Assembly: GCA_965248925.1 (NCBI GenBank)
Contig: CBDFLE010000005.1
Coordinates: 1,568,001 to 1,632,000, forward strand
Length of the DNA: 64,000 bases
Reading direction: 5' to 3'
Source: Candidatus Multivoradales bacterium
GTDB lineage: Bacteria > Acidobacteriota > Thermoanaerobaculia > Multivoradales > J023
Position 1 is the first letter of the stretch, and each line of letters starts with the position of its first letter. The position numbers and the translations under genes are program-made. Of the stretch, positions 33,032-59,567 are shown piece after piece. Under the pieces are notes generated by a model. That model saw only the letters and a program-made list of their open reading frames with translations, did no database searches and was not told the origin of the DNA.

Positions 33032-33042
33032 GGAGGTCACCG

Positions 33043-42463: not shown

Positions 42464-43522
42464 ATGGAGCCCCTGGCTTCCACCGCTACAGCCATGCTTC
42501 CGGAGATCGTCGGGGGTCAACTGCGGCGGGCCGTGCTGCTGACCTTGCTCTACAGCGACCTGTTCGACTTTCCCTTGGACGAGGCAGAGCTCTACCGCTT
42601 CCTGGTAGCACCGTGCGACAGCCCGGAACAGCTTCGCCACGCTTTGGCAGAACTCGAGGCCGAAGATCGGGTCAGCCGGGTGGATAGCTGGTGGTTCCTG
42701 GCCGGCAGTGAGGCCAACATAGAACTGCGCCAGCAACGCCAACAGCTGGCGGCGCGGCGCTGGCCACCGGCGCGGCGCTTCGGCCGCTGGTTGAGCTGGG
42801 TACCCTTCCTGCGCATGGTCGGAGTCTGCGGCTCGCAAGCGGTGGAGAACGGCGGCGCTGACGGTGATGTCGATCTGGTGTTGATCACCGCTCCGCGGCG
42901 CTTGTGGATCGCCCAGGCGACGGTGATGCTGCTGCGCCGCCTTGGCGGCCTATTAGGTATTGAGATCTGCCCTAATTTTCTGCTGAGCGCCGACCAGCTG
43001 GTGCTCCAAAACCGCAATCTCTATGTCGCCCGCGAAGTAGCCCAAGTAGTGCCCTTGTGGGGTGAGGACGCCTACCAAGACTTCCTCGCCGCCAATCGCT
43101 GGATCCACACTTTCCTGCCCCAAATCGCCAACGGCGACCGACAACGTTTTCTCGAGCCGCGGCCTCAACACCTGGCCACTCGATGGGTCGAGAAGCTGCT
43201 CGGCGGCAGGCTGGGGACACTGCTCGATGGCGCCATCCATCGCCTCTCGCTGACCTACTACGCACTCCGCTTGCGCCGTCACGGCTGGAGCAGGCAAGAG
43301 ATCGAGCAAGCCTACCGGCCCGAGCGTCAAACCGTGATGCGCGGCGGCTTTCTCGGCGCGGTACGGCGCCGTTTCCTCGACCGCGCCGCCGAGCTGCTGG
43401 ACGATGAGGACGTCTTGCCAGAAGCGACGGCGTTGTTCGAGAGCGGCGCTCTGGACGACGCCGACCCGCTCTATGCCAACCTCTTCACCAGCCGCTACGG
43501 CAGCGCGGATCCGCCGCGATGA
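42464..43522 (+). CDS. Conserved hypothetical protein with a nucleotidyltransferase-like motif
   Basis: LLYSDLFDFPL..E and VGVCGSQAVENGGADGDVDLVLIT (GSx10DxD). ATGA-coupled to the next radical SAM gene. Confidence 0.7.
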   Translation: MEPLASTATAMLPEIVGGQLRRAVLLTLLYSDLFDFPLDEAELYRFLVAPCDSPEQLRHALAELEAEDRVSRVDSWWFLAGSEANIELRQQRQQLAARRWPPARRFGRWLSWVPFLRMVGVCGSQAVENGGADGDVDLVLITAPRRLWIAQATVMLLRRLGGLLGIEICPNFLLSADQLVLQNRNLYVAREVAQVVPLWGEDAYQDFLAANRWIHTFLPQIANGDRQRFLEPRPQHLATRWVEKLLGGRLGTLLDGAIHRLSLTYYALRLRRHGWSRQEIEQAYRPERQTVMRGGFLGAVRRRFLDRAAELLDDEDVLPEATALFESGALDDADPLYANLFTSRYGSADPPR

Positions 43523-45069
43523 GTGGTGTCCTCTTCGGCCATTCTTACTTCCTGCGCTTTGATCCCAAGCTGTGGCAGGCGATGCAGCCGTACCCGCCCC
43601 TGGGCACCCTGTTTGCCGCCGCTTACTTGCGCCAACGGGGCTTCGAAGTGGCCCTCTTCGATGCCATGCTGGCCGCATCAGAAGAGGAATTCGCCAGCGC
43701 CCTCGACCGACATCAGCCCGACTATGCCGTGCTCTACGAAGACAACTTCAACTACCTGTCGAAGATGTGTCTGCTGCGGATGCGCGAGGCGGCCTGGCGG
43801 ATGATCGACCTCGCTAGACAGCGGGGAGCGACGGTGATCGTCTGTGGTGCCGATGCTACCGATCACAGCGCTGAATACCTCGAACGCGGCGCCCATTTCG
43901 TGCTCAACGGCGAAGGCGAGGCCACTCTCGCCGAGTTGCTCGAACGACTGCAAGCGGGAGGAGAGCGCTTCGACGACATCCTCGGTCTCACTGCAGCAGC
44001 AGAGTTCGCCGGCACCGATGAGCCCCTGCGCACCCCGCCGCGGCCGGTGCTGCGCGATCTCGACGCTCTGCCTTTTCCAGCTTGGGACCTGGTGGACATG
44101 GAGCACTATCGCCGCTTGTGGCGCCAGCGCCACGGCTACTTCTCGATAAATATGGTCACCACTCGCGGCTGCCCCTTTCATTGCAACTGGTGCGCCAAAC
44201 CGATCTGGGGACAGACCTATCACCAGCGCAGCCCAGCCCTGGTCGCCGCCGAGCTGAGCGAACTTCAACAGCGCTATCAACCCGACCACATTTGGTTTTG
44301 CGACGACATTCTCGGGCTGAAGAAAGGGTGGTTGGAGGATTTCGCCGCTGAAGTCGAGCGGCGCGGCGTGCGCACGCCGTTCAAATGCCTGAGCCGCGCC
44401 GATCTGCTGCTACGCCCGGGCGAGATCGAAGCGTTGGCCAAGGCCGGCTGCCGGGTGGTGTGGATCGGCGCCGAGTCCGGCTCCCAAAGAGTGCTCGACG
44501 CCATGGACAAAGGGACCAAAGTAGAGCAGATCCACCGCGCCGCCGAACTCTTGCACCAGGCTGGGGTGAAGGTCGGCTTCTTTCTCCAATTCGGCTACCC
44601 CGGCGAAAGCCGCGAAGAGATCGAACTCACCCGAACTCTGGTGCGCGACTGCCAGCCCGACGAGATTGGCATGTCGGTGTCCTATCCCCTACCCGGCACA
44701 AAGTTCTACGATTTGGTCAAGCAAGAACTCGGCGAGAAGCGCAACTGGGTCGATTCCAACGATTTCGACATGATGTACCGTGGTCCCTTCACCACCGCCT
44801 TCTACCGTCAACTCTACAAAGTGGTGAACAAAGAGTTTCGCGCCCAGCTGGCCGCCAACGCTCTCAGGCGCCTGGGGCATCACCCCACCGATCTCCGTCT
44901 CGGCCATTTGCGCCGCGCCGCCGCCTTGCTCTATCACCGGCTCACCCTGCCCGGCGAGCGCCGCAAGCTCAACCGCCGCGAAAAAGACCAGCATCAGGGG
45001 CTAGGCCCATTGAGCACCGGCATGAGCCACGAGGAAGCCTCCCGACCGACATCGCAAGCCAGCAGCTAG
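43519..45069 (+). CDS. Cobalamin-binding radical SAM protein (paralog type B)
   Basis: PYPPLGTL, GEGE, RGCPFHCNWC, WIGAESGSQ and SYPLPGT motifs. Confidence 0.92.
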   Translation: MSGVLFGHSYFLRFDPKLWQAMQPYPPLGTLFAAAYLRQRGFEVALFDAMLAASEEEFASALDRHQPDYAVLYEDNFNYLSKMCLLRMREAAWRMIDLARQRGATVIVCGADATDHSAEYLERGAHFVLNGEGEATLAELLERLQAGGERFDDILGLTAAAEFAGTDEPLRTPPRPVLRDLDALPFPAWDLVDMEHYRRLWRQRHGYFSINMVTTRGCPFHCNWCAKPIWGQTYHQRSPALVAAELSELQQRYQPDHIWFCDDILGLKKGWLEDFAAEVERRGVRTPFKCLSRADLLLRPGEIEALAKAGCRVVWIGAESGSQRVLDAMDKGTKVEQIHRAAELLHQAGVKVGFFLQFGYPGESREEIELTRTLVRDCQPDEIGMSVSYPLPGTKFYDLVKQELGEKRNWVDSNDFDMMYRGPFTTAFYRQLYKVVNKEFRAQLAANALRRLGHHPTDLRLGHLRRAAALLYHRLTLPGERRKLNRREKDQHQGLGPLSTGMSHEEASRPTSQASS

Positions 45070-45092: not shown

Positions 45093-45404
45093 AACAGAGC
45101 TGGGAGGAGAGTCAATCTATCTCTTGCCCACCTGGGAGTTCTCCTGAACCTGTACGAGGCGGACCTCGAAGAGGCAAACTTCGAATTGACTAACCTCTTC
45201 AAGGCGGACCTCCATTGCGCGAATCTTCAAGGGGCAAACCTTCAAGGCACGCAGCTGCTAGGGGCGGACCTCGCTGGAGCAGACCTCAACGGGGCGCGCA
45301 ACCTGACGCAAGAACAAATCGCCTCAGCCCACGGCGATGAAGAGACCCTCTTCCCCGAGGGCCTAGAGCGCCCGGCGCACTGGACAAGCGACCCGAAGCC
45401 CTGA
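45093..45404 (+). pseudogene. 5'-truncated pentapeptide-repeat protein fragment
   Basis: The frame is open from a TAG at 45090 with no ATG. It reads ADLEE ANFEL TNLFK ADLHC ANLQG ANLQG..ARNLTQEQI..GDEETLFP, a typical pentapeptide C-terminal cap. Confidence 0.7.
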
Positions 45405-45561
45405 ATTCGCAGCCGGGCGGATTCCGTCGCTAGCCTAGAAGGCGCAGGCCGGACGAGGCTCCCAGGAGGGGCCTCAAGAACTCTCTTCGCGGTTCCCACG
45501 TCGCTATTCTACTGCGCCTGAGGGGCTCTCGCCTCGCATCGATTGGCCAAGTCGGTGCTGC

Positions 45562-47055
45562 CTACGAAACCGGAAGCACCACATCCGTAGTCAGCAGCCA
45601 CTCGGCGATCTGGAACACCGCGGCTGTCAGGCCGGCGATCGGCACGTACTGCAAGAAGTAGGCGTGCAGTCGATAGACCCAGAAGTATTCGGCAAGCCGC
45701 GGAGAGTAGCCGCCGCGGGTCTCTGCATCTCTCAAGCCGGACACGTAGTAGGTCAGGATGCCTCGGCTGATGTTGTACAAGATCAGCGCCACCGCCAGAA
45801 GGCGCAGAATGAGGTGCTCGCCTGGCTGGTGGAGGCCGACTAAAGGACGCCAGATGGGTTGTGGGGAGCCGCAGTTCTTCCGGGCCTCAAGGCAAAGGCC
45901 GAGCTCGTTGACGGGCGTTAGCGTCCGGACGGCAATGCTAGCGAGTGCTTGATCTCGGAGGCGCAGAGTTTCCTCCTCGATGACCTGGCGGCCGCGGTCG
46001 ATGTCGAGGCCTTCCCGGTTCCATAGAGCGATGGCTTCGGCTAGGGCGCCCGGTGAGCTGGCCAGCTGCTGGAGTCGAGCCTCGCTCTGCTGTCGACGGT
46101 TGTCTGCGGCGACCTGCACCGCCGAGCTCGCTTCCTGGGCTGCGTTCACGCCCTTCCAGTACCCGGCGCGGCTGATGTGAGGTACGAGGAACAGGAGTAG
46201 GAACAGGAGGTTGAACAGGAGGGCGGGGCCGGAGTAGGCGCTGCGGACTACGGACCAGGGGTCTTGGGAGCCAGGAGCGAAGCGGGCGTTGAGGATTCTG
46301 GTGTCGTCGAGGAGCAGACTGGCTTCCTCCCTGCGATCCTTCAACTGTAACCACTTGGGCCTCCGCAGTCGCAGATCTGCCCCCGAAAGATCTGCTTGGT
46401 GCCAGATACTACCCTTCACCCATGCGCCGCTCAGGTTGGCGGTCTTCAGGCGCGCGCCGCTCAGGTTGGCCAACTCCAGGTGCGCGCCGCTCAGGTTGGC
46501 GTTCTCCAGGCGCGCGCCGCTCAGGTCGGCGTTCTCCAGGCGCGCGTCGGCCAGGATGGCACTCTCCAGACGCGCGCCGAGCAGGTTGGCGTTCTCCAGG
46601 TGCGCGCCGCTCAGGTTGGCGTTCTCCAGGCGCGCGCCGCTCAGGTCGGCGTTCTCCAGGCGCGCGTCGGCCAGGTTGGCGTTCTCCAGGTGCGCGCCGC
46701 TCAGGTTGGCTTTCTCCAGGCGCGCGCCGCTCAGGTCGGCTTTCTCCAGGCGCGCGCCGCTCAGGTTGGCTTTCTCCAGGCGCGCGTCGCTCAGGTCGGC
46801 GTTCTCCAGGTTGGCGTTCTCCAGGCGCGCACCGTGGAGGTCGGCGTTCCATCTACCACCAACCTTCAACCAAAGGCTGCCGAGCGCAAGCTCTTCCCGA
46901 GCCGAGAGGTCAAGTCTTACCAGATGCGGCCGCTCGTCCTTCGCTTCCGATCGCCAGGTGTTCCAAGCGTCGACCCCTTCGAGGAGTTTCCGCAGATGAT
47001 CGAGGTTGCCTTCGAACGTCGGGAACTCCGCCTTTAGCTGTTCATCCGTGACCAT
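45562..47055 (-). CDS. Pentapeptide-repeat protein with C-terminal TM segments and coiled coil
   Basis: GAGGAG RBS, GVDAWNTWR N-terminal motif, about 30 A(N/D/R/H)Lxx pentapeptides, then about 3 hydrophobic helices. Confidence 0.88.
   Translation of the reverse strand: MVTDEQLKAEFPTFEGNLDHLRKLLEGVDAWNTWRSEAKDERPHLVRLDLSAREELALGSLWLKVGGRWNADLHGARLENANLENADLSDARLEKANLSGARLEKADLSGARLEKANLSGAHLENANLADARLENADLSGARLENANLSGAHLENANLLGARLESAILADARLENADLSGARLENANLSGAHLELANLSGARLKTANLSGAWVKGSIWHQADLSGADLRLRRPKWLQLKDRREEASLLLDDTRILNARFAPGSQDPWSVVRSAYSGPALLFNLLFLLLFLVPHISRAGYWKGVNAAQEASSAVQVAADNRRQQSEARLQQLASSPGALAEAIALWNREGLDIDRGRQVIEEETLRLRDQALASIAVRTLTPVNELGLCLEARKNCGSPQPIWRPLVGLHQPGEHLILRLLAVALILYNISRGILTYYVSGLRDAETRGGYSPRLAEYFWVYRLHAYFLQYVPIAGLTAAVFQIAEWLLTTDVVLPVS
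46423..46840 (-). repeat. Intragenic 15/30-bp tandem repeats with a 120-bp higher-order duplication
   Basis: Unit GTTCTCCAGGCGCGCGCCGCTCAGGT(T/C)GGC. 46501-46555 is identical to 46621-46675. Confidence 0.9.
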
Positions 47056-47096
47056 TCATCCGCTCCTCTCTATGAAGTGATCTCGCCCAAGACGAG

Positions 47097-47411
47097 CTAC
47101 CGTAGCAAAGGGCTGCGCCTCTCGACCCTGAACCGAGCCATCCGGCAGCCGATTTCGAAGGCGGCAGCCAGAGTCGCTGACTTGGCGGGGCCGACGCCTG
47201 GTTGGTCCTTGAGCTGGCCGTTGGCGCTCAACAGCGATCTGAGGTCGCCATGCTCCTTGAGCAGCTCCTGCGCGACATCCAAGGCAGACTTGCCGGCACC
47301 GCCCGTTCGCAGCAGGACGGCGACTAGCTCAGCATTGGACAGCGACTCTGGCCCATGATGTAGGATGCGGCCACGCGCTTCCTCATCGCTAGGCTTCTGA
47401 GACCGGCTCAT
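47097..47411 (-). pseudogene. radC: RadC (UPF0758) N-terminal region only; JAB domain absent
   Basis: GPESLSNAELVAVLLRTG and GVGPAKSATLAAAFEIG, with the stop before any HxH JAB motif. Confidence 0.8.
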
Positions 47412-47625
47412 CGCCGTGAAGCGGCCATCAGAAGGCAGCCGACGGCGTTGCGCAGGCCATCGATCTGGGCCGCTGCGATGGCGCCGGAGAGGTCTTCATT
47501 GAAGCAGCAGGTAGCCGCGATCTTGGAGAGGTTAGATCCAGCCACAAGAGGCGAAGAGCTATGATTTGGAGCGCGGTTTGAGGGTCTTGAGGGTTCGGGT
47601 TGGTATGCTTCGGGCGGTCCTGCAT
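47408..47625 (-). pseudogene. Frameshifted small hypothetical gene, paralog of 50279-50572
   Basis: Frame 1 reads ..QTALQIIALRLLWLD and shifts near 47535 into NLSKIAATCCFNEDLSGAIAAAQIDGLRNAVGCLLMAASRR*. Its TGA overlaps the radC ATG (ATGA). Confidence 0.5.
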
Positions 47626-47855
47626 CGGGGCTTTTCCGGTGTTGGATAGGCTCGATGGGCGGCTCGTAACTGCTCGCCGGGCCGGATTGGGGTGGCAGGG
47701 CCTGGTGGGGCCTGCTGACTCGACTGGTGAGAATGGCTATATGAGACTTGAATTGAATGTCAACGAATATTCTTGGAAATCAGCTGATAGATTTGCCCAC
47801 ACCTATCTGCGCCGAGACGATTTGTAACATGTAGATTCTGCGTCACGCAGAGGGA

Positions 47856-48398
47856 TTGCCGATGACACCGATCAGTCAATGGATACTAGAAAATCAGTAC
47901 TGGCTCCGAGTTATCGGACACGCCTTTGTACTACTAGGAATTGTATTGACTGGAGTCGCAGGCACACGCATACTTAGGATCTTGGAAAGCTTCGGCGAGA
48001 AGCTCTATATGCTGACACTAATCACCATTGGACTGTCGCTCCAAATCCTCCCCTTTGCGCTTGGCTGGTTGCTTTACTATATCAATGAGCGCTTTGGCAT
48101 CCTTGAGTTCTTGATTCCCAACGCCCGCCAGAATACGAGCGCGATGTCTCGCGGTGAAGCGATATGGGAGCTGATGCGCTGGGCACCATTCTTTCTCATC
48201 TGCCTATACTTGACTGGAGGAATCGTTTCCCTATCAAGTGAGCTGCACAAGAAGTACAGAAAATTGCTCGCCCCCTTCACCAACAAGATCGAACGCATCA
48301 AGGCGACTGTGGCGGCCGACAGATTCCTACATGGGAGCGGTGTTGCATTTGCCGCAGCTGGCGTTTTGATGCATCTGGCAGTGGACGCGAATCAGTAG
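47856..48398 (+). CDS. Hypothetical membrane protein (about 4 TM), AT-richer than its flanks
   Basis: Four hydrophobic stretches and atypical codon usage. No motif recognised. Confidence 0.6.
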   Translation: MPMTPISQWILENQYWLRVIGHAFVLLGIVLTGVAGTRILRILESFGEKLYMLTLITIGLSLQILPFALGWLLYYINERFGILEFLIPNARQNTSAMSRGEAIWELMRWAPFFLICLYLTGGIVSLSSELHKKYRKLLAPFTNKIERIKATVAADRFLHGSGVAFAAAGVLMHLAVDANQ

Positions 48399-48449
48399 AG
48401 CACAGTGCTACCCTTTCGTTCGGCAACACGGCGACGACGCCTGGCTGAT

Positions 48450-48852
48450 CTCGGAAGGTGCAGCAGCACCGCTGTCTCGTAAGGACTGATCCAGAATGCC
48501 GATCGCGTCGCCGTCTTGATCCACGGCTCGCCATAGGTAGTGCTACTGGCCTTGGATCTTTACGAACATCTCGTCAAGATACCAGAAGTCGCCGAGCTGG
48601 CTCTGCTTCCACTTCAGCCGGCGGGCGTACTCACCGCCAAACTTCCCACTCCACTGGCGAATCGTCTCGCAGGATACAATCACCCCGCGTTCAGCGAGCA
48701 GATCTTCGACGTCGCGAAAGCTCAAGCAGAAGCGGTAGTAGAGCAATACGGCGTGGTTGATGATCTCGGGCGGGAAGCGGTAGACGCGGTAGCTTAGAGC
48801 GAGATTGTTTGAGGGACTACTTTACCATGCTCGGGCTCAATCTGACAGTCCC
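48450..48852 (-). mobile_element. IS6-family transposase remnant with putative left IR
   Basis: YRFPPEIINHAVLLYYRFCLSFRDVEDLLAERG..ETIRQW..WYLDEMFVKIQGQ*HYLWRAVDQDG with an in-frame TAG. GGGACTGTCAGATTGAG at 48852-48836 resembles an IS6 end. Confidence 0.85.
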
Positions 48853-48993
48853 CTCGGCAGCACCACTGCCCGGCTCATTGCTGATCTTGTCTGGGAGGGG
48901 CAGTTGTTAGATTCCAGCAAACGACACACGACAGGCCCTGCACGCCCTCAGCCAAGAACCTTGAAGTAACACACGTAAAGAGGTTTCACAGAA

Positions 48994-50572: not shown

Positions 50573-50594
50573 GCTACAGCCGAGGGAGCGGCTG

Positions 50595-51416: not shown

Positions 51417-51604
51417 CGCTGAATGCTGCCTCCTTCAGAACCGCCTATAGACCTACTCTCGATCCGCCCCCTCCCACCACCACCCCGCAGGGATCCCGGT
51501 CAGCGTCTCGACCGCGCGCCTGCCTCGCACCCGCCGCTATCGGACCAACACACTGTTAGGACACCACCAGGCGCCGCCGCGGCAGCGACGTGCTGAGCTG
51601 CGCC

Positions 51605-51613: not shown

Positions 51614-51659
51614 ACTGCTTCGTCCTCGAACCTCAGCCTCCTTTGCGAGAGCACCTGTC

Positions 51660-53072
51660 TTGAAGAAGCACAAAGTCGTCCTCTACAACCCGCGAGCGGT
51701 GTTCTACACCATGCCTTTAGCTCTAGTGGCGGTGGGCTCGGCGCTGGACCGCGAACGCTTCGAAGTGGTGTTGATCGACGGCCGCCTGGAGAACGATGCC
51801 GAGCGGCGGGTCGCTGAAGAGGCTGCTGATGCCCTCTGTCTGGGAATTTCGGTACTGACCGGAGCACCGATTCGTGACGCCCTGGCCGTCGGCCGGGCGG
51901 CCAAACGACGCTCGCCCCAGCTGCCGGTGGTGTGGGGCGGCTGGCATCCTTCGTTGTTTCCGCTGCCGGTCCTCGACGAGCCGCTGATCGACATCACCAT
52001 CCAGGGCCAGGGAGAGCGCACCTTCGCCGAACTGGTCGAACGCCTCGCCGCGGGCCAGGACCTGGAGGGCGTTCAGGGCCTGTCCTGGCGCCGTGACGGC
52101 CAAGCGGTGCGCAACCCACCGCGACAGCTGGAAGAAATGGAAGACCTGCCGCAGCACGACTACAGCTTGATGCCGGTGGAACGCTACTTCGATCTCAAGG
52201 GCCAGCGCCAACTCGACTACATATCCTCCACCGGCTGCCTCTTCCGCTGCGCCTTCTGCGCTGACCCCTTCGTTTACCAGCGGCGCTGGAAAGCGATTTC
52301 GCCCGCACGCCTGGGAACCGAGATCGAAGAACATTGGCGACGCTACCGGTTCACCGAGCTGGCCTTCCAGGATGAGACCTTCTTCACCTACCGCGAGCGG
52401 GTGGCGGAGATTGCCGAGCAATTCTTGTCTCGCGGCCTCGATTTCCACTGGACTGCCACACTGCGCGCCGACCAAGGGGTGCGGCTGACGCCTGAGACCT
52501 TCGCCCTCTGTGTGCGCTCCGGCATGCGCCGGGTCATGGTGGGGGTCGAATCGGGTTCGCAGGAAATGATGGACTGGATGAAGAAGGACATCAAGATCGA
52601 GCAGGTGTTGGAAACCGCTGAACTCTGCCGCCGCCACGGCGTCGGCGTGATCTTTCCCTTCATCGTCGGCTTCCCCAACGAGACCGAGGCCAGCGTCCAG
52701 GCCACCATGGACCTGATGAAGCGCCTCAAGGCGATGAGCCCATCCTTCGACACGCCGCTGTTCTACTTCAAGCCCTATCCCGGCTCGCCGATCACTCAAG
52801 AGATGGTGGCTAACGGCTACCACCTGCCCGAGACCCTCGACGATTGGGCCGATTTCGACTTCGTTGGCACCTCCAACGAGTGGGTGCCACGGGAGCAAGA
52901 GCGCAAGCTAGAGCGTTTCAAGTTCTACAACCGCTTCGCCTGGGGCCCCGAACGCTGGTTCAAGCGCCCGCTACAGACCGTCTGTCGCTGGCGTTGCCGG
53001 CGGGACTTCTACCGCTGGCCGTTCGAAAAACTAGTGGTCGAGCGGCTGTTCCCGCAAGCCGAACTGTCGTAG
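51660..53072 (+). CDS. Cobalamin-binding radical SAM protein (paralog type A)
   Basis: VLYNP..MPLAL, VWGGWHP, GQGE, GCLFRCAFC and GVESGS motifs. Confidence 0.92.
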   Translation: MKKHKVVLYNPRAVFYTMPLALVAVGSALDRERFEVVLIDGRLENDAERRVAEEAADALCLGISVLTGAPIRDALAVGRAAKRRSPQLPVVWGGWHPSLFPLPVLDEPLIDITIQGQGERTFAELVERLAAGQDLEGVQGLSWRRDGQAVRNPPRQLEEMEDLPQHDYSLMPVERYFDLKGQRQLDYISSTGCLFRCAFCADPFVYQRRWKAISPARLGTEIEEHWRRYRFTELAFQDETFFTYRERVAEIAEQFLSRGLDFHWTATLRADQGVRLTPETFALCVRSGMRRVMVGVESGSQEMMDWMKKDIKIEQVLETAELCRRHGVGVIFPFIVGFPNETEASVQATMDLMKRLKAMSPSFDTPLFYFKPYPGSPITQEMVANGYHLPETLDDWADFDFVGTSNEWVPREQERKLERFKFYNRFAWGPERWFKRPLQTVCRWRCRRDFYRWPFEKLVVERLFPQAELS

Positions 53073-53095
53073 ACCGGAGCGGTGGAGACGGAACC

Positions 53096-54502
53096 TTGGA
53101 CTTATTGCTGACTCACGGCTACTTCTTGGCCCACGACGAGCATGAGCAGGACATCATGCGGCCCTACCCGCCGCTGGGCCTGCTCTACGTTTCGTCGCAC
53201 CTCAAGGCCCGGGGATTCGAAGTCGCCGTCTTCGACTCCACCCTGAGCCGCAAGAGCGAACTCGAGGCGCACATCGCCGCCCAGCGCCCGCCAGTGGTTG
53301 GCATTTACGTCAACATGCTGACCCGCGCCAACGTGCTAGAGATCATCCGCTGGTCGAAGGCGGCCGGGGCCAAGGTGGTGTTGGGCGGCCCGGAAGCCGC
53401 CAACTACCCGCGCCAATACCTCGAACGCGGCGCCGACGTGGTGGCCTTTGGCGAAGGTGAACTCACCCTCGAGGCGCTGCTGCCCCATTTCGCCCACCAC
53501 GGCCGCCGCGGACTCGAGGGGGTGGCGGGCATCTACTATCTCGACGACGAGGGCGAGCTGTGCCAGACCGAGGCGCGAGAACAGATCGCCGATCTCGATG
53601 CCCAGCCCTTCCCCGATCGCCAAGCGATCGACATCCCCGGCTACATGGATATCTGGCGCACTCACCACGGCATGGGCTCGGTATCGTTGATCACCGCCCG
53701 CGGCTGCCCCTTCAGGTGCAAATGGTGCAGCCACGCGGTGTTCGGCTACACCCACCGTCGACGCTCGCCGGAGAATGTGGTGGCAGAAGTGGCGCAGATC
53801 ATCGAGCGCTACGATCCGGAGCTGCTGTGGTACGCCGACGACGTCTTCACCATTCAACATAAATGGCTCTATCAATACGCCGATGCGATGCGCGCCCGTG
53901 GTTTCCGCGTGCCCTTCGAGACCATTTCGCGAGAGGACCGGCTGAACGAAAAAGTGGTGAAGACCCTCGCCGACATGGGCTGCTTCAGACTCTGGATCGG
54001 CGCCGAATCCGGCTCGCAAGCAGTTCTCGACGCGATGGATCGGCGGACCGACGCGAGCCGCGTGGTGGAGATGGTGAAACTCCTGCAACAGCACGGTATC
54101 GAGGCCGGGATGTTCATCATGCTGGGCTACCACGGCGAGCGCCAAAGTGATCTGCTGGAGACCGTCGAGCGGCTCAAGGCGGCGCTGCCCGACGTCTTCC
54201 TGACCACCGTCGCCTACCCCATCAAGGGCACCAAATACCACGCCGAAGTCGCCGACCAGGTGGTCTCGCTCAGCGACTCCTGGGAAACCGGCTCCGACCG
54301 CTTGCAGACCATCCTCGGGCGCCATTCTCGACGCTATTACGACCACACCACCCGCTGGATGGTCAACGAAGTCGCCCTGCATCGGCAGCGGGTGCGGCAC
54401 AAGGGCAACCTGCTCGGCCGCGCCCGCCACTACCTCAAGGCGCGCTACGGCCGCCTCGGCATGGCACTGACCCAGCGCCAAGTGGAGCGCGGCAAGCCTT
54501 GA
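53096..54502 (+). CDS. Cobalamin-binding radical SAM protein (paralog type B)
   Basis: PYPPLGLL, GEGE, RGCPFRCKWC, WIGAESGSQ and AYPIKGT motifs. Start reassigned to TTG 53096. Confidence 0.92.
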   Translation: MDLLLTHGYFLAHDEHEQDIMRPYPPLGLLYVSSHLKARGFEVAVFDSTLSRKSELEAHIAAQRPPVVGIYVNMLTRANVLEIIRWSKAAGAKVVLGGPEAANYPRQYLERGADVVAFGEGELTLEALLPHFAHHGRRGLEGVAGIYYLDDEGELCQTEAREQIADLDAQPFPDRQAIDIPGYMDIWRTHHGMGSVSLITARGCPFRCKWCSHAVFGYTHRRRSPENVVAEVAQIIERYDPELLWYADDVFTIQHKWLYQYADAMRARGFRVPFETISREDRLNEKVVKTLADMGCFRLWIGAESGSQAVLDAMDRRTDASRVVEMVKLLQQHGIEAGMFIMLGYHGERQSDLLETVERLKAALPDVFLTTVAYPIKGTKYHAEVADQVVSLSDSWETGSDRLQTILGRHSRRYYDHTTRWMVNEVALHRQRVRHKGNLLGRARHYLKARYGRLGMALTQRQVERGKP

Positions 54503-55329
54503 GCCAGCTCGCCTCGCATCCCTTCGACAACGCCGCAGGGGCCTACGACTCGGATTTCACTCACCGCCCCTTGGGGCGGATGTTGCGAGCCCGGGTTTGG
54601 GAAGCAATGGACCAGCTCTTCGCCCCCGGCGAGCGCATCTTGGAACTTGGCTGCGGCACCGGCGAGGATGCTCTCTACCTGGCACGGCGTGGGCTCCAGG
54701 TCACTGCCACCGATGCCGCCGCCGGCATGCTCGAGGTCACCGCCAACAAGCTGCGCCACGCCGACTTGACCTCCCGGGTAGAAATCGAACAGCTCGATTT
54801 GACGGCGGTGGCGGCTAACAGTCCTCCGCCGGGCCAAGGATCGACGCTCTTCGACGGTGCCTTCTCCAACTTCGGCGCTTTAAATTGCCAGCCTTCCTGG
54901 CAGCAGCTGGGCGGCGCTCTGAACCATTGGGTTCGCCCCGGCGGCAAGGTGTTGCTGGTGGTGATGGGGCCTTGGTGCCCGTGGGAGGTCGCCGCCTTCC
55001 TAATCCGTGGCCAGCCCGGCAAAGCGGCGCGGCGCTGGCGCGCTGGCCAACCGGCGCAAGTTGGAGATGGCCACACCCTGCCGGTCTGGTACCCCTCGCC
55101 GGGCCGGCTGCGGCGCCAGCTCACCGCCGGCGGTCTTCGCTGGCTGGGCTGCGCCGGCCTGGGAGTGCTCCTGCCACCTTCCTTTCTCGCCGGCCTGGTA
55201 GAGCGCCATTTGCCCACTTTCGAGAATCTCGACCGCTGGGAACGCCGCCTGGCCAAGCGTTTTCCCTTCCCTTGGTTAGGCGATCACTACTTGATGATCC
55301 TCGAACGTCCCGGCGAGACTGCGCCGTGA
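54499..55329 (+). CDS. Class I SAM-dependent methyltransferase
   Basis: LELGCGTGED, FDGAFSNFGALNC and PGG motifs. Overlaps the upstream stop. Confidence 0.9.
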   Translation: MSQLASHPFDNAAGAYDSDFTHRPLGRMLRARVWEAMDQLFAPGERILELGCGTGEDALYLARRGLQVTATDAAAGMLEVTANKLRHADLTSRVEIEQLDLTAVAANSPPPGQGSTLFDGAFSNFGALNCQPSWQQLGGALNHWVRPGGKVLLVVMGPWCPWEVAAFLIRGQPGKAARRWRAGQPAQVGDGHTLPVWYPSPGRLRRQLTAGGLRWLGCAGLGVLLPPSFLAGLVERHLPTFENLDRWERRLAKRFPFPWLGDHYLMILERPGETAP

Positions 55330-57290
55330 AGGTGCCGAGCTTCCTTCGCGGGCCGCGTCGTGAGCAAGTGATCTGGGCGCTGCTGGCCACCTTGTTGGCC
55401 TGGTCGTTGGTACATCTACCCCGCCATCTGCGGCCCCAGCTCAAGCCGGCGATAGAGGCCGCGGCACGGTGGCACGATCCAGCCAGCCAGCTGGAGATCC
55501 TCGACCCCAGCCCCCATCGCCTGCTGTGGCAAGCAGCCGGCCACCTGCCAGAGAACGCCCGCGTCTTGCTGATCACCGCCGGCAAAGACCCCAAGCAGAG
55601 CGAGTACCGCACCTTCCACCGCGCGCTCTACGCACTGGCGCCGCGGCCGCTCTATTGGCGCTCGCCGGCGCCGGCCGACGGCACCTGGGAGTCCCGTAGC
55701 TGGCGCAGTGGCCCGATCGATTCAGAGTCGGTGCTCGCCGATGCTGCCACCCTCGAGATCAGCCATATCCTGACCCTCGATCCCGTATCCCGTCTGCGGC
55801 TTGGCCCGCAGAACGTGGATCTCGCCGCGGGTCAGCTAGTGGCCCTCGGGGATGCCCGCTTTCGCACCTTCCGCAACACCGCACCAGGCCCTCCGGCGCG
55901 CTGGTGGCCACTCGCCCTAATCGCCGCCCTGGGAGTTCCTTTGCTGTTGGGAGCAGCGGTCTTAAGTTTGCTGGCTGCCCCCTGCGGCGGTGGCGAGCGG
56001 TGGGCATTGGCCATGCTGATCGGCACCGGACTCCTGACCTGGGCCATGTTCGGTCTCGGCCTGGCCGGCTTGGGGCTCGACTTGCAAGTGGCGCTACTAA
56101 CCAGTCTCACTCTCGCTCTGGCAGTGCTCGGCCGCTGGCTGCGCCGCCCGGCGGCTGCCCTAGGGAGTCCTCTCTTTGCCACCCCGCCGCGGCCCGGCGT
56201 CGCCGCCAGCGGCCTGCGCTTCGGGCTGTGGGTAGTGATCGGAAGCTACTTTCTGCTCTCCATTCTGCTCGCCGTCGGCCGGCCGCTGAGCACCTGGGAC
56301 AGTTGGGTCACCTGGGGCATGAAGGCCCGCATCCTATTCTTGGACGGCGGCATTGGTGAGACCATTCTCGGCGATCCGTCGCGGACCGCCACCCACCTCG
56401 ACTATCCACTGCAGCTACCACTGGCCGAGGCTTGGCTCTACTCCTGGCTCGGGCAGCCCGACGAGCGCCTGGTCGGCAGTTGGTCAGTGCTCTATTTGGC
56501 GGCCTTGCTGGCCTTGCTTTTCAGCGCGGTGACGAGCCACGGCGGTAGTCGACGTCTGGCGCTGATGACCACCGCCGTGGTGGCCGCCACCGCCCACGTC
56601 TGGACCCTGGCCGGCATGGTCTTCGCCGACCTGCCGCTAGCCGCCCTGATGCTGGGCACCGCCCACCAACTGTCACGCTTTGTTGGCCGTGGCGAACGAG
56701 CGGCCTTAGTGTTGACCGCGCTCTGTGGCGGACTGCTACCGTGGATGAAGCGCGAAGGCTTGGTGCTGGTCGCTTGCTTGGCCCTGGCCGCACTGTGGAG
56801 CTACGGCCGATCGCGACGCACTTGGACCGCGGTCGCCGCCTTGGCCAGTGGGTGTGTGGTGCTCAGCGGCCCCTGGTGGCTCACGGTCAAGCTAGCCGGC
56901 GCGACCACCAGCGACTTCGCTAGCAGCAGCTTTGCGGCCATGCCGCTGGAGCAAGCAGTGAAGATCTTCTGCCAAACCGCCCGCAGCTTGAGCAGCCCTT
57001 GGGCCTCGGCGGTTTGGTGGCTGCTGCCGCCACTCCTCCTGTGGCGGATCTGGCGGCGCCAGCAGCCACTGGCCGCCACTCCCCACAGCCTGCTGCCAGC
57101 CACTGCCCTGCTTTACCTCGCAGCCATGTCGGCCAGCTATCTGTGGAGCCGCTACACCCCGATCGAAGCCCACATCGGCCACTCCTTCTGGCGCTTGGCG
57201 GTCCATATCTTGCCCCTCGTCGTGCTATGGATAGCTCTATTGGCCAATACCTCCAAAATCGCCCTCAGCGATCGGGGAAAAGCGGCTTGA
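55326..57290 (+). CDS. Polytopic membrane protein, GT-C (ArnT/PMT-like), with an extra N-terminal periplasmic domain
   Basis: GTGA overlap, more than 10 TM segments, WDSWVTWGMKA, HLDYPL, ADLPLA and KREG motifs. Confidence 0.7.
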   Translation: MKVPSFLRGPRREQVIWALLATLLAWSLVHLPRHLRPQLKPAIEAAARWHDPASQLEILDPSPHRLLWQAAGHLPENARVLLITAGKDPKQSEYRTFHRALYALAPRPLYWRSPAPADGTWESRSWRSGPIDSESVLADAATLEISHILTLDPVSRLRLGPQNVDLAAGQLVALGDARFRTFRNTAPGPPARWWPLALIAALGVPLLLGAAVLSLLAAPCGGGERWALAMLIGTGLLTWAMFGLGLAGLGLDLQVALLTSLTLALAVLGRWLRRPAAALGSPLFATPPRPGVAASGLRFGLWVVIGSYFLLSILLAVGRPLSTWDSWVTWGMKARILFLDGGIGETILGDPSRTATHLDYPLQLPLAEAWLYSWLGQPDERLVGSWSVLYLAALLALLFSAVTSHGGSRRLALMTTAVVAATAHVWTLAGMVFADLPLAALMLGTAHQLSRFVGRGERAALVLTALCGGLLPWMKREGLVLVACLALAALWSYGRSRRTWTAVAALASGCVVLSGPWWLTVKLAGATTSDFASSSFAAMPLEQAVKIFCQTARSLSSPWASAVWWLLPPLLLWRIWRRQQPLAATPHSLLPATALLYLAAMSASYLWSRYTPIEAHIGHSFWRLAVHILPLVVLWIALLANTSKIALSDRGKAA

Positions 57291-58822
57291 AATCCCAGAC
57301 AGCTCAGCCCGGTCGGCGACTCAGCACGCTGAAGAGCCTGGTGCCGATCGCCCTTATCGCGCCTGCCAGCGCTTTCTTACTGTCGTTGTTCGGAGCCTTC
57401 GATGGCCTGTACGGTCAAGACGCCTATGCCTACCTCGCCTACGCCAACGGCCCCCTCCGCGAGAGCGTCCTCAGCCTGGCCCCACCCGCTGCCTTCTACT
57501 GGCCACCGGGATATCCGCTGCTAGTCCTGGGCAGTTCCCTGCTGGTCGGCAGCGGCCCCCTGGCCGGCCAACTGGTGAGCCTGGGTGCCGGCTTTGTCGT
57601 TGCCTTGTTCACCGGCCTGCTGGCGGCTGAGCTGGGCCCGAACAAAGGCACTGGCGGGTTCCCCGTGCCAGCGCTGGCGACCTTGGTAATGGCCCTGAAT
57701 GGCCAGCTATGGCTGGCCAGCAGCGTGGTGATGTCCGACGCTGCCGGCCTCGCCGCCGCCACCGTCGGTGCCTGGGCTTTGGCGCGGTTCACCCGTGGTG
57801 GCGCGTCGCGTTGGCTGCTGCTGGCCGCCGCCGCTACCGCCTGGGCGGTGCTGACCCGCTGGGCTTTTGGCCTGCCGGCAGTCCCCTTCACCCTCGCCGC
57901 CTTGGCTGCGCTTCGACATCGGGGGCCACGAGCTTGGCCAGCAGCCGGGGGCGCGGTGCTGGTGGTCGCCCTGGTGCTTGCACCGGCCTGGCTGCAACTC
58001 GCCGACGGTCCAGCAGACGGCGGCGAGACGGTGACCTACTTGGGCAACCTAAAAAACTTCGCCTGGTCGCCGGCCAACACTGTCAAGAGCAGCTTTGACA
58101 CCGTCGACGGCCACCTCGACTATCGCCTGCCGATGGGACTGTTCTTCGCCGCGGCGCCGGCCCGAAGCTTCGCCTTCGCTCCCCTGCTCGCTCTGCTGCT
58201 GCTCCCCGGAGCCTGGCTGGTGGCGCGCCAGCGGTCGGCGCCCGGGCGTTTGATTCTGCTCGGCTGGCCAACCCTCGTGCTGGGCTACCACGCCGGCTCC
58301 ACGCTGCAAAATGTGCGCTTCATCCTGGCCATCGCTCCACCGTTGGCGGTGCTGATCGCAATCGGCTCGCAACAGCTCGGCAAGCGCTGGCTGCGGGGTC
58401 CCGCGCGGCGCTCCCTCAAGGTATTTCTGGCCTGCGGCCTACTGGCCATGGCTGCTGGCGGGGTGAGGTTTCATCGGCTCTTCACCGAACAGAAACAGAA
58501 TCACCTCGAGCTGGTTCGCTGGACTACCCAGCGAATGCCAGCCAAGGCTCGCCTACTGACCTTCAACATGACCCTGGCAATGCGCCAATACAGCGACTTC
58601 GAGGTAGAAGAACTCTACGGCTTGAGCCAGGCCGAGACTCTGGCCCTGGCCACCGATGCCCTGCCCGCCTTCCTCCTTCTCGACCTCGACAGCGTCGAAC
58701 GCCAGTGGCAAGATCACCCCCCGGGAGTCAACTACCGAGCACTGCGCGACGGCCCCGGCCTAGTACCGCTCGGTCAGCTAGACGGCTGGCACCTATTTCG
58801 AGCGATAAGACATGCGAATTGA
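57287..58822 (+). CDS. ArnT/GT39-like membrane glycosyltransferase
   Basis: TTGA overlap, GQDAYAY, YWPPGYP, VMSD and NVRFIL motifs, multiple TM segments. Confidence 0.75.
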   Translation: MKSQTAQPGRRLSTLKSLVPIALIAPASAFLLSLFGAFDGLYGQDAYAYLAYANGPLRESVLSLAPPAAFYWPPGYPLLVLGSSLLVGSGPLAGQLVSLGAGFVVALFTGLLAAELGPNKGTGGFPVPALATLVMALNGQLWLASSVVMSDAAGLAAATVGAWALARFTRGGASRWLLLAAAATAWAVLTRWAFGLPAVPFTLAALAALRHRGPRAWPAAGGAVLVVALVLAPAWLQLADGPADGGETVTYLGNLKNFAWSPANTVKSSFDTVDGHLDYRLPMGLFFAAAPARSFAFAPLLALLLLPGAWLVARQRSAPGRLILLGWPTLVLGYHAGSTLQNVRFILAIAPPLAVLIAIGSQQLGKRWLRGPARRSLKVFLACGLLAMAAGGVRFHRLFTEQKQNHLELVRWTTQRMPAKARLLTFNMTLAMRQYSDFEVEELYGLSQAETLALATDALPAFLLLDLDSVERQWQDHPPGVNYRALRDGPGLVPLGQLDGWHLFRAIRHAN

Positions 58823-59567
58823 CCTGCCAGCGGCCAGTAGCGCCAACGCCCTGGCCGCTTCACAACAGGCCGTAGCAGCTAGACCAGCCCTACTTCGCAC
58901 CTTGTGGCGCCGGCTGCTGGAACTCAAATTCCGCTGCTGGCAGCGGCGGCGCTATCGGCGCCTGGCGCTGGTGCAAGTCCGCAAGCTCGAAATCTTGGTG
59001 CTCGACGAAGTCTTCAACCCAGCCATGTTCCGCACCGGGCCGTTCCTGGTCGATACCGTCCACCGAGAGGCCAGCCACCTGGCTGCTGGCGCCAGCGTCT
59101 TGGAACTCGGCAGCGGCAGCGGCATCGGCGCTCTGACTATTGCCAACAGCTGCGACGGAGCGCTGATCACCGCGGTCGACATCAACCCCCAAGCCGTGCG
59201 CTGTAGCCGAATCAATGCCCTGCTGCACGGTCACGCCCAGCAGATCGAAGTGTTGCGGGGAGATCTCTTCGCACCGGTCGCCGGCCGCCGCTTTGACCTG
59301 GTGCTCTTCCACCCTCCCTTTTGGCGCGGCGAGCCCGACAGCGATCACGACCGCGCGCTCTACTCGACCGATATCGCCGAACGCTTCGCGGCCGGTCTAC
59401 CAGCGCACCTAAGCGCCGGTGGCCGATCCTTGCTGCTGCTCTCCAGCGACGGTGACCAAGCCGCTTTCCTCAAGGCGCTGGCGAGAGCCGGATTCACCCT
59501 CCAGCTCTGCGCCAGCCGCGACCTGATCAACGAAGTGCTCACCGCCTACCTGATCCAGCGGCCGTAG
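58812..59567 (+). CDS. HemK2/PrmC-like methyltransferase
   Basis: VFNP, LELGSGSG, VDINPQAV, GDLFAPV and FHPPF (variant of NPPY). Confidence 0.85.
   Translation: MRIDLPAASSANALAASQQAVAARPALLRTLWRRLLELKFRCWQRRRYRRLALVQVRKLEILVLDEVFNPAMFRTGPFLVDTVHREASHLAAGASVLELGSGSGIGALTIANSCDGALITAVDINPQAVRCSRINALLHGHAQQIEVLRGDLFAPVAGRRFDLVLFHPPFWRGEPDSDHDRALYSTDIAERFAAGLPAHLSAGGRSLLLLSSDGDQAAFLKALARAGFTLQLCASRDLINEVLTAYLIQRP

Follow-up and report, generated by a model that had tools for sequence, protein, structure and literature searches.

We describe a gene system in the genome of Candidatus Multivoradales bacterium (Acidobacteriota, Thermoanaerobaculia; GenBank assembly GCA_965248925.1), where a stretch of 64,000 nucleotides of contig CBDFLE010000005.1 (positions 1,568,001 to 1,632,000 of the forward strand, here termed the window, with positions counted from its first letter) encodes four cobalamin (B12)-binding radical S-adenosylmethionine (SAM) enzymes, two methyltransferases, a nucleotidyltransferase (NTase)-like protein and two membrane proteins predicted to be GT-C glycosyltransferases. 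Comparison with other genomes reveals that these genes belong to a real, conserved gene system of several phyla, in which known superfamilies occur in a combination without a characterised example. The genome of the window appears to hold a fragmented copy, split by an insert and with relocation both of one radical SAM gene (rSAM4) and of a locus encoding flippase-like, methyltransferase, GNAT, deacetylase, GT-C and GT2 proteins. On balance, and with modest conviction, we read the genes as a broken-up local version of a glycoconjugate-tailoring cassette that is conserved and uncharacterised, by which a polyprenyl-phosphate-linked amino sugar would be modified in the cytoplasm, flipped, and transferred outside the membrane by GT-C enzymes. 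The members of the cassette in the window are as follows.

42464..43522, + strand: X356, winged-helix and Pol-beta-type nucleotidyltransferase-like protein, first gene of the cassette (alignment, AlphaFold2 (AF2) model, VIA-align, Atlas)
43519..45069, + strand: rSAM1, B12-binding radical SAM enzyme, paralog of rSAM3 (PF02310 and PF04055)
51660..53072, + strand: rSAM2, B12-binding radical SAM enzyme, paralog of rSAM4, optional member of the cassette (PF02310 and PF04055)
53096..54502, + strand (open reading frame (ORF) 52844/53096-54502): rSAM3, B12-binding radical SAM enzyme, the most conserved member (PF02310 and PF04055)
54499..55329, + strand: MT1, class I SAM methyltransferase (Methyltransf_25/11/12)
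55326..57290, + strand: Mem1, predicted GT-C fold membrane glycosyltransferase with an N-terminal extracytoplasmic domain (AF2 model and Foldseek)
57287..58822, + strand: Mem2, predicted ArnT/PMT-like (GT39/GT83-type) GT-C membrane glycosyltransferase (PF13231/PF02366 in its homologs)
58812..59567, + strand: MT2, HemK2/MTQ2-like (MTS-type) methyltransferase, probably an N-methyltransferase (PF05175, TIGR00537)
18362..19840, - strand: rSAM4, B12-binding radical SAM enzyme, relocated member of the cassette (PF02310 and PF04055)

A cassette conserved across phyla

A profile scan with the rSAM3 alignment, using one genome per species, found at least 574 records that encode a relative, of which the best 80 loci were kept with up to 10 kb of flank on each side. 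Because these are the best-scoring loci among the records, their taxon mix is biased: 57 are labelled Chloroflexota (many classes) and nine Acidobacteriota, the others being Myxococcales, KSB1, Elusimicrobia, Bacteroidota/Rhodothermales, Gaiellaceae or unclassified. Two labels (Gracilibacteria and Enterobacteriaceae) look like binning errors, and metagenome-assembled genomes (MAGs) labelled Sphaerobacter and Nitrolancea carry the cassette. The nearest named relatives of rSAM3 come from Thermoanaerobaculia and Chloroflexota MAGs, and the 120 best of 7,999 scored matches are 60-70% identical to it over 93-100% of its length. Taking the 80 listed loci and these 120 relatives together, rSAM3 orthologs keep 53-70% identity across phyla, which fits a fixed small-molecule substrate.

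Searches with the window proteins (tblastn) reveal a recurrent order on one strand, i.e. X356, rSAM1, (rSAM2), rSAM3, MT1, (a further methyltransferase), MT2, rSAM4 and variable genes, often with Mem2. The linkage counts take only loci with enough flanking DNA, and their denominators differ by gene.

rSAM1, directly upstream of rSAM3: 64/68 loci
rSAM2, between rSAM1 and rSAM3: 24/72 loci
X356, upstream of rSAM1: 42/49 loci
MT1, downstream of rSAM3: 47/68 loci
MT2, downstream of rSAM3: 31/53 loci
rSAM4, downstream of rSAM3: 28/47 loci
Mem2 ortholog, downstream of rSAM3: 7/36 loci
Mem1 ortholog, downstream of rSAM3: 2/36 loci

In other genomes the rSAM4 orthologs (51-67% identity) lie 2-4 kb downstream of rSAM3, right after MT2, with which they are paired. 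Mem2 is present in the cassette of 10 loci and is contiguous with MT1 in L062 and L070, the minimal contiguous versions of the system (X356-rSAM1-rSAM3-MT1-Mem2). Compact versions also occur in L036 and L057, where the genes from X356 to Mem2 span about 12 kb. Three kilobases upstream of the minimal cassette of L070 (1766-4087) lies a gene for a 3-hydroxy-3-methylglutaryl (HMG)-CoA reductase-polyprenyl synthetase fusion, a possible isoprenoid link seen once. The first-pass annotation of the window, which was made from its letters, had looked to conserved linkage with GT-C and methyltransferase genes as a check on its proposal; the four radical SAM enzymes, both methyltransferases and the NTase indeed form one cassette in other phyla, with a GT-C protein in 13 of 26 loci.

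Closer to home the distribution is patchy. In the window genome's own family, 8 of 18 genomes have an rSAM3 match at E ≤ 1e-60, as does one of the 12 genomes that represent the order's other families, and two of these nine genomes match only at ~1e-78 to 1e-87, the level typical of the rSAM1 paralog; the best match among the family and order genomes is only 66-70% identical. No paper describing the cassette was found in full-text literature, a search whose coverage mostly excludes subscription journals and does not include supplements, and no NCBIfam or Pfam model covers X356, Mem1, Mem2 or the flippase-like protein of the companion locus described below.

Four radical SAM enzymes outside the characterised families

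All four radical SAM proteins pass the cut-offs of both PF02310 and PF04055, i.e. they have the class B architecture, and a CX3CX2C motif is present in each translation (CPFHCNWC, CLFRCAFC, CPFRCKWC and CPFLCNFC). rSAM1 is 33% identical to rSAM3 (E 7e-92) and rSAM2 is 27% identical to rSAM4 (E 1e-54), with weaker matches between the pairs (75-115 bits). A quick maximum-likelihood tree of 47 sequences, comprising the four window proteins, their counterparts from 12 loci and two outgroups, resolves four orthologous clades with support of 99-100 (rSAM1 99, rSAM2 99, rSAM4 100), each containing one window protein; rSAM2 and rSAM4 are sisters with support of 99, and rSAM1 and rSAM3 are sisters with support of 83, which is not strong. 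Since the four clades are orthologous across genomes, the pairs are ancient paralogs within one system, of which the genome of the window holds a broken-up copy. Only six matches to rSAM3 at E ≤ 1e-5 occur in the 8.0-Mb genome, and four of the six lie within 41 kb, which is more clustering than expected by chance. The first-pass annotation had picked out these four genes and paired them by sequence motifs; Pfam, pairwise identity and the tree agree with that pairing, and the motifs are present in the translations.

The closest named family for rSAM1, rSAM3 and rSAM4 in NCBIfam is BchE (TIGR02026), for which rSAM1 to rSAM4 score 124.8, 119.9, 138.0 and 125.8 bits against a cut-off of 481, whereas rSAM2 best matches ApyD (135 bits against 750) and HpnJ (123 against 578). 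Scores of the four proteins are 88-123 bits for HpnJ (TIGR03471, cut-off 578), 54-98 for HpnR (TIGR04367, 650), 92-135 for ApyD (NF050148, 750), 65-85 for the TIGR03975 C-methyltransferases (282) and 47.5-68.5 for the AprD4 family diol-dehydratases (NF033070, 500); further named matches, including PhpK and the ladderane-type lipid family TIGR04072 (101-120 bits for rSAM1-3), are also far below cut-off. The nearest solved structure by sequence is that of AprD4 (6fd2; E 1e-16 to 2e-16 for rSAM2 and rSAM3). Because no curated cut-off is reached, rSAM1-4 are class B superfamily members that fall in no characterised family. Clustering with families of the BchE or HpnP kind had been raised at first pass as an alternative outcome, and none of the four proteins is orthologous to any characterised family, their best NCBIfam scores of 92-138 bits comparing with the cut-offs of 481 (BchE), 578 (HpnJ), 650 (HpnR), 750 (ApyD) and 500 (AprD4).

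Partner proteins of the cassette

X356 has no Pfam or NCBIfam match above noise, and a Foldseek search of its AF2 model against the PDB returned nothing at E ≤ 0.001, only weak MNT/NTase matches; its assignment as an NTase therefore rests on VIA-align, motif and Atlas evidence. In the model (predicted local distance difference test score (pLDDT) 85) a winged helix at the N terminus is followed by the NTase domain, in the centre, and by helices towards the C terminus. Residues 93-214 align with the aminoglycoside nucleotidyltransferase ANT(4') (6nlt; Z 9.3, root-mean-square deviation 3.2, 113 residues aligned), which acts on a sugar hydroxyl, and residues 16-84 with many winged-helix domains (Z 8-10.5). 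G123 and the D135-x-D137 pair are invariant across 23 aligned orthologs, giving the G[ST]...DxD pattern on an NTase fold, and PF01909 is found on 11-25% of the members of the nearest Atlas clusters. The first-pass description of an NTase-like protein coupled to rSAM1 is thus supported by both fold and motif.

The two methyltransferases named at first pass are both class I by Pfam. The best NCBIfam match of MT1 is CpaM (62.8 bits against a cut-off of 180), whereas MT2 passes the HemK2/MTQ2 model TIGR00537, although barely (88.8 bits against 87). The NPPY motif is that of amine and amide N-methyltransferases, and MT2, whose orthologs have NPP[FY], is probably an N-methyltransferase.

Neither membrane protein of the window has a Pfam match at E ≤ 0.01, and searches of the PDB with sequence profiles built from the Mem2 and Mem1 alignments gave nothing at E ≤ 1. 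Mem1 is assigned from its model (pLDDT 87, predicted template-modelling score 0.91), for which the top Foldseek matches are almost exclusively GT-C, i.e. AftA (E 1.8e-4), AglB, ArnT, PglB, STT3, ALG9, PimE, Pmt4 and AftB (probability 1.00, template-modelling score 0.26-0.44); all its listed matches with a probability of at least 0.9 are GT-C enzymes or oligosaccharyltransferase complexes. PF13231 (PMT_2) is found in 3 of 23 homologs, and W324-W327 form a conserved WDSW motif. Elsewhere in the genome, at C6:4309597-4311417, there is a gene for a Mem1 paralog (37% identity over 635 residues). For Mem2, PF13231 and/or PF02366 (PMT_2/PMT) occur in 38 of 120 listed homologs and related GT-C families in others, and the homolog P0167 is a fusion with a PIG-L deacetylase; a conserved FDGLYGQD segment that contains D39 and D45 follows the first transmembrane (TM) segment. 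Both proteins, Mem1 as modelled and Mem2 as judged from its homologs, are thus predicted to have the GT-C fold, as the first-pass annotation had supposed, with an acidic motif in the first outside loop. They are not detectably homologous to each other, since hhalign gives a probability of 7.9%. GT-C enzymes use polyprenyl-phosphate-linked sugar donors at the outer side of the membrane, and the presence of two such predicted proteins counts in favour of the glycoconjugate reading.

Gene junctions and the insert

The block 51660-59567, encoding two radical SAM enzymes, two methyltransferases and two predicted GT-C membrane transferases, is tightly packed. X356 and rSAM1 share an ATGA stop-start overlap; rSAM3/MT1 (TTGA), MT1/Mem1 (GTGA) and Mem1/Mem2 (TTGA) overlap by 4 nucleotides each, and Mem2/MT2 by 11. 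The Mem2 start is placed at the TTG at 57287, overlapping the Mem1 stop, because the stored protein (P0121) has 511 residues. A spacer of 23 nucleotides separates rSAM2 from rSAM3, so these two genes do not overlap, and GGAGA precedes the TTG start of rSAM3. The translational coupling of the radical SAM gene at 53096 to the methyltransferases and membrane proteins, up to 59567, which was part of the first-pass annotation, is accordingly seen as an overlap at every junction. Its treatment of 42464-59567 as a single block has to be revised, since this region is not one operon and ~45.1-51.6 kb is unrelated inserted DNA:

45100..51600, strand not assigned: inserted DNA unrelated to and outside the system, splitting the cassette (Pfam, G+C content, comparison with other genomes)

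In other genomes rSAM1 directly precedes rSAM2 or rSAM3. The 6.5-kb insert between rSAM1 and rSAM2 is mobile-looking: by Pfam it encodes pentapeptide-repeat membrane proteins (45562-47055 and 50904-51416) and a DUF5677 protein (48994-49734), and by eye, from the translations, RadC-like N-terminal fragments (47097-47411, - strand, and 50559-50681) and a short transposase-like ORF (48543-48746, - strand). Its G+C fraction falls to a minimum of 0.547 at 48-50 kb, the window as a whole having 55-68%. A 91-nucleotide inverted repeat (70% complementary; 50150-50240 and 51481-51571) flanks the small pentapeptide-repeat gene just upstream of rSAM2, and a 30-nucleotide periodicity over ~570 nucleotides (46334-46906, 14 overlapping copies) corresponds to the tandem pentapeptide repeats of a 497-residue protein. 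Promoter and terminator scans were at chance level, with a single promoter-like site at 42344-42372, upstream of X356. Among the sequencing data sets listed for 51600-59600 none is of RNA; the four listed come from one study and probably from the source sample.

Glycan-assembly genes around the cassette

Genes of the other loci were called with a simple longest-ORF script, which is crude, and clustered, and selected ORFs were scanned; for the neighbours, every unlabelled ORF of at least 200 residues was taken from the 26 loci with full 10-kb flanks (207 proteins). By Pfam and tblastn, a GT-C protein (Mem1/Mem2, GT87 or YfhO) lies within 10 kb in 13 of these 26 loci, and some glycan-assembly gene (GT-C, Wzy_C, Wzx, GT4, WecA-type or PIG-L) in 21; by Pfam alone there is none in L016, L017, L022, L041 or L083. 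GT87 proteins occur in L050, L064, L068, L073 and L078 and YfhO in L049. Wzy_C proteins, which are often encoded immediately upstream of X356, occur in L010, L013, L023, L046 and L078, and also L080, and Wzx-type Polysacc_synt proteins in L010, L014 and L036, and also L080. GT4 enzymes recur near the cassette. Enzymes that could act on amino sugars are present too, i.e. a PIG-L deacetylase inside or next to the cassette (L059), a NagA-type amidohydrolase (Amidohydro_1) adjoining a small methyltransferase (L050, L060, L063, L064 and L068) and, in L036, a GNAT with the Acetyltransf_9/17 architecture, which we take to be that of Eis. A SPASM radical SAM gene follows rSAM4 directly in L013 (twice), L016, L046 and L077, the corresponding protein of L073 matching Radical_SAM only, and a 400-residue protein with 11 predicted TM segments and no family match is encoded just before Mem2 in L057, L023 and L022. 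In the window genome, tblastn at the thresholds used gave no SPASM radical SAM, GT87 or Wzy_C/Wzx homolog of the types found at the other loci.

A companion locus in the same genome (L087, C5:2156000-2174000, core 2158-2167 kb) encodes, on one strand, an AlgX-like SGNH protein, a flippase-like protein, a methyltransferase, a GNAT, a PIG-L deacetylase, a PMT_2 GT-C protein, a 248-residue GT2 and a GT4. Three adjacent genes of this series (C5:2162.8-2166.1 kb) match genes that are within the cassette elsewhere (tblastn): the flippase-like protein is 41% identical to one in L057, the methyltransferase 27% to one in L084 and the GNAT 33% to that of L036. Given these homologs of cassette genes, the system appears to be spread over four places in the genome. 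The flippase-like protein has six predicted TM segments, compared with 11 in its L057 ortholog, and no family match. The best matches of the GT2, all below cut-off, are ArnC (60.8 bits against 529) and the dolichyl/polyprenyl-phosphate hexose synthases.

In the window itself, two genes on the minus strand, opposite X356, bear out the first-pass statement that a WecA-like gene and an epimerase gene are divergent from the cassette:

41130..42317, - strand: WecA/MraY-family polyprenyl-phosphate N-acetylhexosamine (HexNAc)-1-phosphate transferase (GT4), divergent from X356 (PF00953)
40099..41130, - strand: NAD-dependent sugar epimerase/4,6-dehydratase (PF01370 197 bits, PF16363 193 bits)

The first scores 97 bits against 27 for PF00953, but 98 bits against a cut-off of 326 for WecA (TIGR02380), and the second reaches no NCBIfam equivalog cut-off. 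Further left, at ~39087-39254 (- strand), a partial second epimerase C-terminus (82% identity over 56 residues) adjoins a DUF4411 / M78-peptidase-HTH pair (37241-38880), pointing to an earlier duplication or insertion at this left end of the locus. rSAM4 is divergent from a block of GT4 glycosyltransferase genes, and within the GT4-rich glycan locus between rSAM4 and the cassette lie genes for a multihaem cytochrome, an MtrB/PioB-type outer-membrane porin and a cbb3-type cytochrome c domain protein (27781-34032). Downstream of MT2, on the opposite strand, is SbcC.

Proposed pathway and the points that weigh against it

The same partners in the same order, in several phyla and at least 574 records, tie four uncharacterised radical SAM subfamilies together, and with this shared context the choice of substrate is narrowed to compounds that polyprenyl-linked glycan machinery handles. 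Polyprenyl carriers are loaded by WecA-type and ArnC/Dpm1-type enzymes, Wzx and Wzy_C proteins handle polyprenyl-diphosphate-linked glycans, and PIG-L and NagA-type enzymes strip N-acetyl groups from GlcNAc derivatives; HpnJ, MoeK5, GenK and AprD4 are precedents for B12-radical SAM enzymes that act on lipid-linked or aminoglycoside sugars. In the pathway that we favour, a HexNAc would be loaded onto polyprenyl phosphate by the divergent WecA-like enzyme or by the ArnC/Dpm1-like GT2 of the companion locus, and the lipid-linked amino sugar would be de-N-acetylated in the cytoplasm, here by PIG-L and in other genomes by the NagA-type amidohydrolase. N-methylation or N-acylation by the NPPY-type MT2 and the Eis-like GNAT, and O- or other methylation by MT1, could follow. 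The two B12-radical SAM pairs, along with the SPASM enzyme where present, would carry out repeated C-methylation of unactivated carbons or a ring rearrangement, and X356 may nucleotidylate a hydroxyl or phosphate of an intermediate in the manner of ANT(4'). In the simplest scheme that draws on every conserved part, X356 would act before the radical SAM pairs. The finished unit would be flipped by a Wzx-like permease and transferred by Mem1/Mem2, outside the membrane, to an envelope polymer, lipid or protein. The gene families, their paralogy, the conserved cassette and its glycan-assembly neighbours are observed; from them we infer the substrate, the order of the steps, the type of radical chemistry, the acceptor and the product. 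The first-pass proposal, an uncharacterised pathway for a multiply C-methylated or rearranged sugar or lipid headgroup of the cell surface, gains support from the conserved cassette and glycan neighbours, with a sugar (and not the lipid carrier or a protein) as substrate, C-methylation (and not rearrangement) as chemistry, and the surface location being parts that we infer.

The bacterium seems unable to make cobalamin and probably imports it, since neither CobD/CbiB nor CobS was detected in the 96.9%-complete genome, which encodes at least six B12-binding radical SAM proteins; the enzymes would then depend on imported corrinoid. One cobalamin riboswitch is found in the genome, at C5:1378020-1378139 (L093, C5:1376520-1379639). 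A search of the window for Rfam families gave no match at the gathering score, and the cassette genes are thus not preceded by a cobalamin riboswitch.

Several points weigh against a glycoconjugate-tailoring role. Half of the fully flanked loci (13/26) have no GT-C protein within 10 kb, three (L017, L041 and L083) are without any glycan gene, and the linkage of Mem2 (7/36) and Mem1 (2/36) orthologs to rSAM3 is low. WecA is divergent from the cassette in L007 as it is in the window, and WecA and an epimerase are nearby in L060 and L063, which amounts to 3 of 26 loci; no sugar-nucleotide or aminotransferase gene is constant in the cassette. The link to the companion locus appears from homology and from the P0167 fusion, not from adjacency. 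PMT-type GT-C and Wzy_C enzymes also glycosylate proteins, the X356 winged helix could be a peptide- or DNA-binding module, and the top-scoring named families for the radical SAM enzymes include peptide (ApyD) and tetrapyrrole (BchE) enzymes besides those for sugars and lipids. Finally, NPP[FY] is present in all 14 aligned MT2 orthologs, whereas the window copy has HPPF and may thus have an altered catalytic motif.

Peptide, lipid and metabolite alternatives

The first alternative is that a protein or peptide is modified, with the radical SAM enzymes C-methylating side chains, MT2 N-methylating Gln/Asn amides and the SPASM enzyme cross-linking or epimerising, as in proteusins or methyl-coenzyme M reductase (MCR), while PMT-like GT-C and (PglL-like) Wzy_C proteins glycosylate an exported protein. 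ApyD, the best NCBIfam match of rSAM2, is an enzyme of ribosomally synthesised and post-translationally modified peptides (RiPPs), and the models for RiPP C-methyltransferases and the MCR glutamine C-methyltransferase score as well, but all peptide-family scores are far under cut-off. MT2 passes the HemK2/MTQ2 model (88.8 against 87) with NPP[FY] in its orthologs, SPASM radical SAM proteins are frequently peptide maturases, and Mem2 homologs match protein O-mannosyltransferase families; on the other side, the PIG-L/NagA-type deacetylases speak for sugars, as do GT4/GT2 enzymes and Wzx flippases. X356 begins with a winged helix, the fold of RiPP recognition elements, but the matches of this domain are DNA-binding domains, PqqD-type proteins being absent among the 50 listed.

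A precursor peptide was sought at the 80 loci among ORFs of 20-120 residues that do not fall in long genes and lie either inside the cassette or no more than 1.5 kb from it (1,088 ORFs, clustered). There was no conserved small ORF or precursor candidate at these loci, a search that very short, fast-evolving or distantly encoded peptides could escape; the only small-ORF families present in at least three loci are antisense shadows of coding genes and HicA/HicB-like toxin-antitoxin pairs (3-4 loci). These pairs, which were named by eye, lie inside the cassette, after rSAM3, in Chloroflexota (L050 13192-13368, L064 11472-11935, L076 5389-5821 and L081 7889-8348). The first-pass observation that no precursor peptide accompanies the enzymes thus extends to 80 loci, which argues against a RiPP, and protease, leader-binding and export genes do not recur at the 26 fully flanked loci. 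Overall we regard modification of a peptide or protein as unlikely.

That the radical SAM enzymes act on a lipid tail, i.e. that they methylate or cyclise an isoprenoid or alkyl chain (the polyprenyl carrier, a hopanoid-like lipid or a membrane-spanning lipid) to which the glycosyltransferases only add a head group, seems to us similarly improbable. The named matches HpnJ and HpnR and the ladderane-type 'lipid biosynthesis B12-binding/radical SAM protein' TIGR04072 (101-120 bits for rSAM1-3) are lipid enzymes, albeit with scores 4-6 fold under cut-off for the lipid families, and all partners are membrane-associated. GrsA/B and Gmm are described as B12-radical SAM lipid modifiers (PMC11214058). 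The HMG-CoA reductase/polyprenyl synthetase fusion 3 kb upstream in L070 would suit this alternative, but it is seen in 1 of 26 loci, and squalene-hopene cyclase, Tes/Mss and fatty-acid or isoprenoid genes do not recur. Moreover, lipid tails have no amino groups, the target of deacetylases, GNAT and an NPPY methyltransferase.

We consider it very unlikely that the product is a diffusible secondary metabolite, such as a moenomycin- or aminoglycoside-like (phospho)glycolipid or pseudo-oligosaccharide, for which X356 and the GNAT would have a biosynthetic or self-resistance role. The apramycin enzyme AprD4 is the nearest solved relative of rSAM2 and rSAM3, X356 resembles ANT(4'), the GNAT has the Acetyltransf_9/17 architecture that we take to be that of Eis, PIG-L, GT4 and SPASM proteins have counterparts in aminoglycoside pathways, and the distribution within the family is patchy (8/18 genomes). 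However, no cyclitol synthase or aminotransferase is conserved in the cassette, the GT-C, Wzy_C and Wzx genes speak for transfer to an extracytoplasmic acceptor, and a spread over at least 574 records, the 80 listed having 53-70% identity, is not what antibiotic clusters usually show. We set aside the synthesis of branched glycerol dialkyl glycerol tetraether (GDGT) or glycerol monoalkyl glycerol tetraether (GMGT) lipids, since tes/mss/gms-type genes do not recur around the cassette; the GDGT/GMGT enzymes described in PMC11214058 are archaeal.

Relation to known systems

The glycoconjugate-tailoring cassette as we read it has four kinds of known relative. The HpnI-HpnK-HpnJ hopanoid side-chain module consists of a GT2, a PIG-L-type deacetylase and a B12-radical SAM enzyme, the last contracting a lipid-linked glucosamine to a cyclitol. 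The system described here likewise combines a GT2 and a PIG-L deacetylase, both in the companion locus, with B12-radical SAM enzymes around a putative lipid-linked amino sugar, and HpnJ is among the top named matches of rSAM1, rSAM2 and rSAM4. With 88-123 bits against 578 these are nevertheless not HpnJ orthologs; hopanoid genes are not found nearby, and four radical SAM enzymes in two pairs, an NTase, an NPPY methyltransferase and predicted GT-C transferases set the cassette apart.

Three-component systems for extracytoplasmic glycosylation (ArnC/ArnD/ArnEF/ArnT, GtrA/GtrB/GtrV, CsbB/GtcA/YfhO and GacI/GacK/GacL) provide a second parallel, since an ArnC-like polyprenyl-phosphate sugar synthase GT2 (in the companion locus only), a deacylase that may act on a lipid-linked sugar, a flippase-like permease and ArnT/PMT-like GT-C transferases are all represented. 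To our knowledge, none of the known three-component systems contains radical SAM enzymes; they transfer simple or lightly modified sugars, whereas in the present system the stage between loading and transfer would involve two to five radical SAM enzymes together with two or three methyltransferases.

Among single enzymes, AprD4 catalyses the C3' deoxygenation in apramycin biosynthesis, GenK methylates gentamicin at C-6', and a lipid-linked sugar is the substrate of MoeK5, from the moenomycin pathway. One report (PMC11214058) calls MoeK5 a moenomycin methylase and relates it to B12-radical SAM enzymes that modify lipids. The likeness of the cassette to this group lies in AprD4 being the nearest solved structure (6fd2, E 1e-16 to 2e-16), but the AprD4 model scores 47-68 bits against 500, and the cassette lies outside an antibiotic cluster, across several phyla, and is tied to envelope glycan machinery. 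Proteusin (polytheonamide-type) RiPP clusters, finally, contain several B12-radical SAM C-methyltransferases and an N-methyltransferase. The cassette similarly has several B12-radical SAM paralogs, an amide-type N-methyltransferase candidate and, at some loci, a further radical SAM enzyme; unlike proteusin clusters it has no precursor peptide at 80 loci and no protease or LanM-type genes, and glycan genes are present instead.

Implications

B12-radical SAM enzymes catalyse some of the hardest reactions in biology, and function is unassigned for most of their subfamilies. We put forward as a speculative possibility, rather doubtful in its full form, that the cassette makes a new class of envelope sugar, in which a polyprenyl-phosphate-borne, N-methylated amino sugar would carry several radical-installed C-alkyl groups or a contracted (carbocyclic) ring, the paralog pairs acting in turn on the lipid-linked substrate, and that this would be a widespread B12-dependent surface trait of Chloroflexota and Acidobacteriota. 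These phyla are abundant in soils, sediments and sludge, and we know of little published work on their envelope chemistry. Sphaerobacter and Nitrolancea have cultured members, so the question may be accessible at the bench. If the proposal is correct, the chemistry of the envelope would depend on imported cobalamin, and corrinoid cross-feeding would be tied to the structure of the envelope through a B12-dependent modification of the surface.

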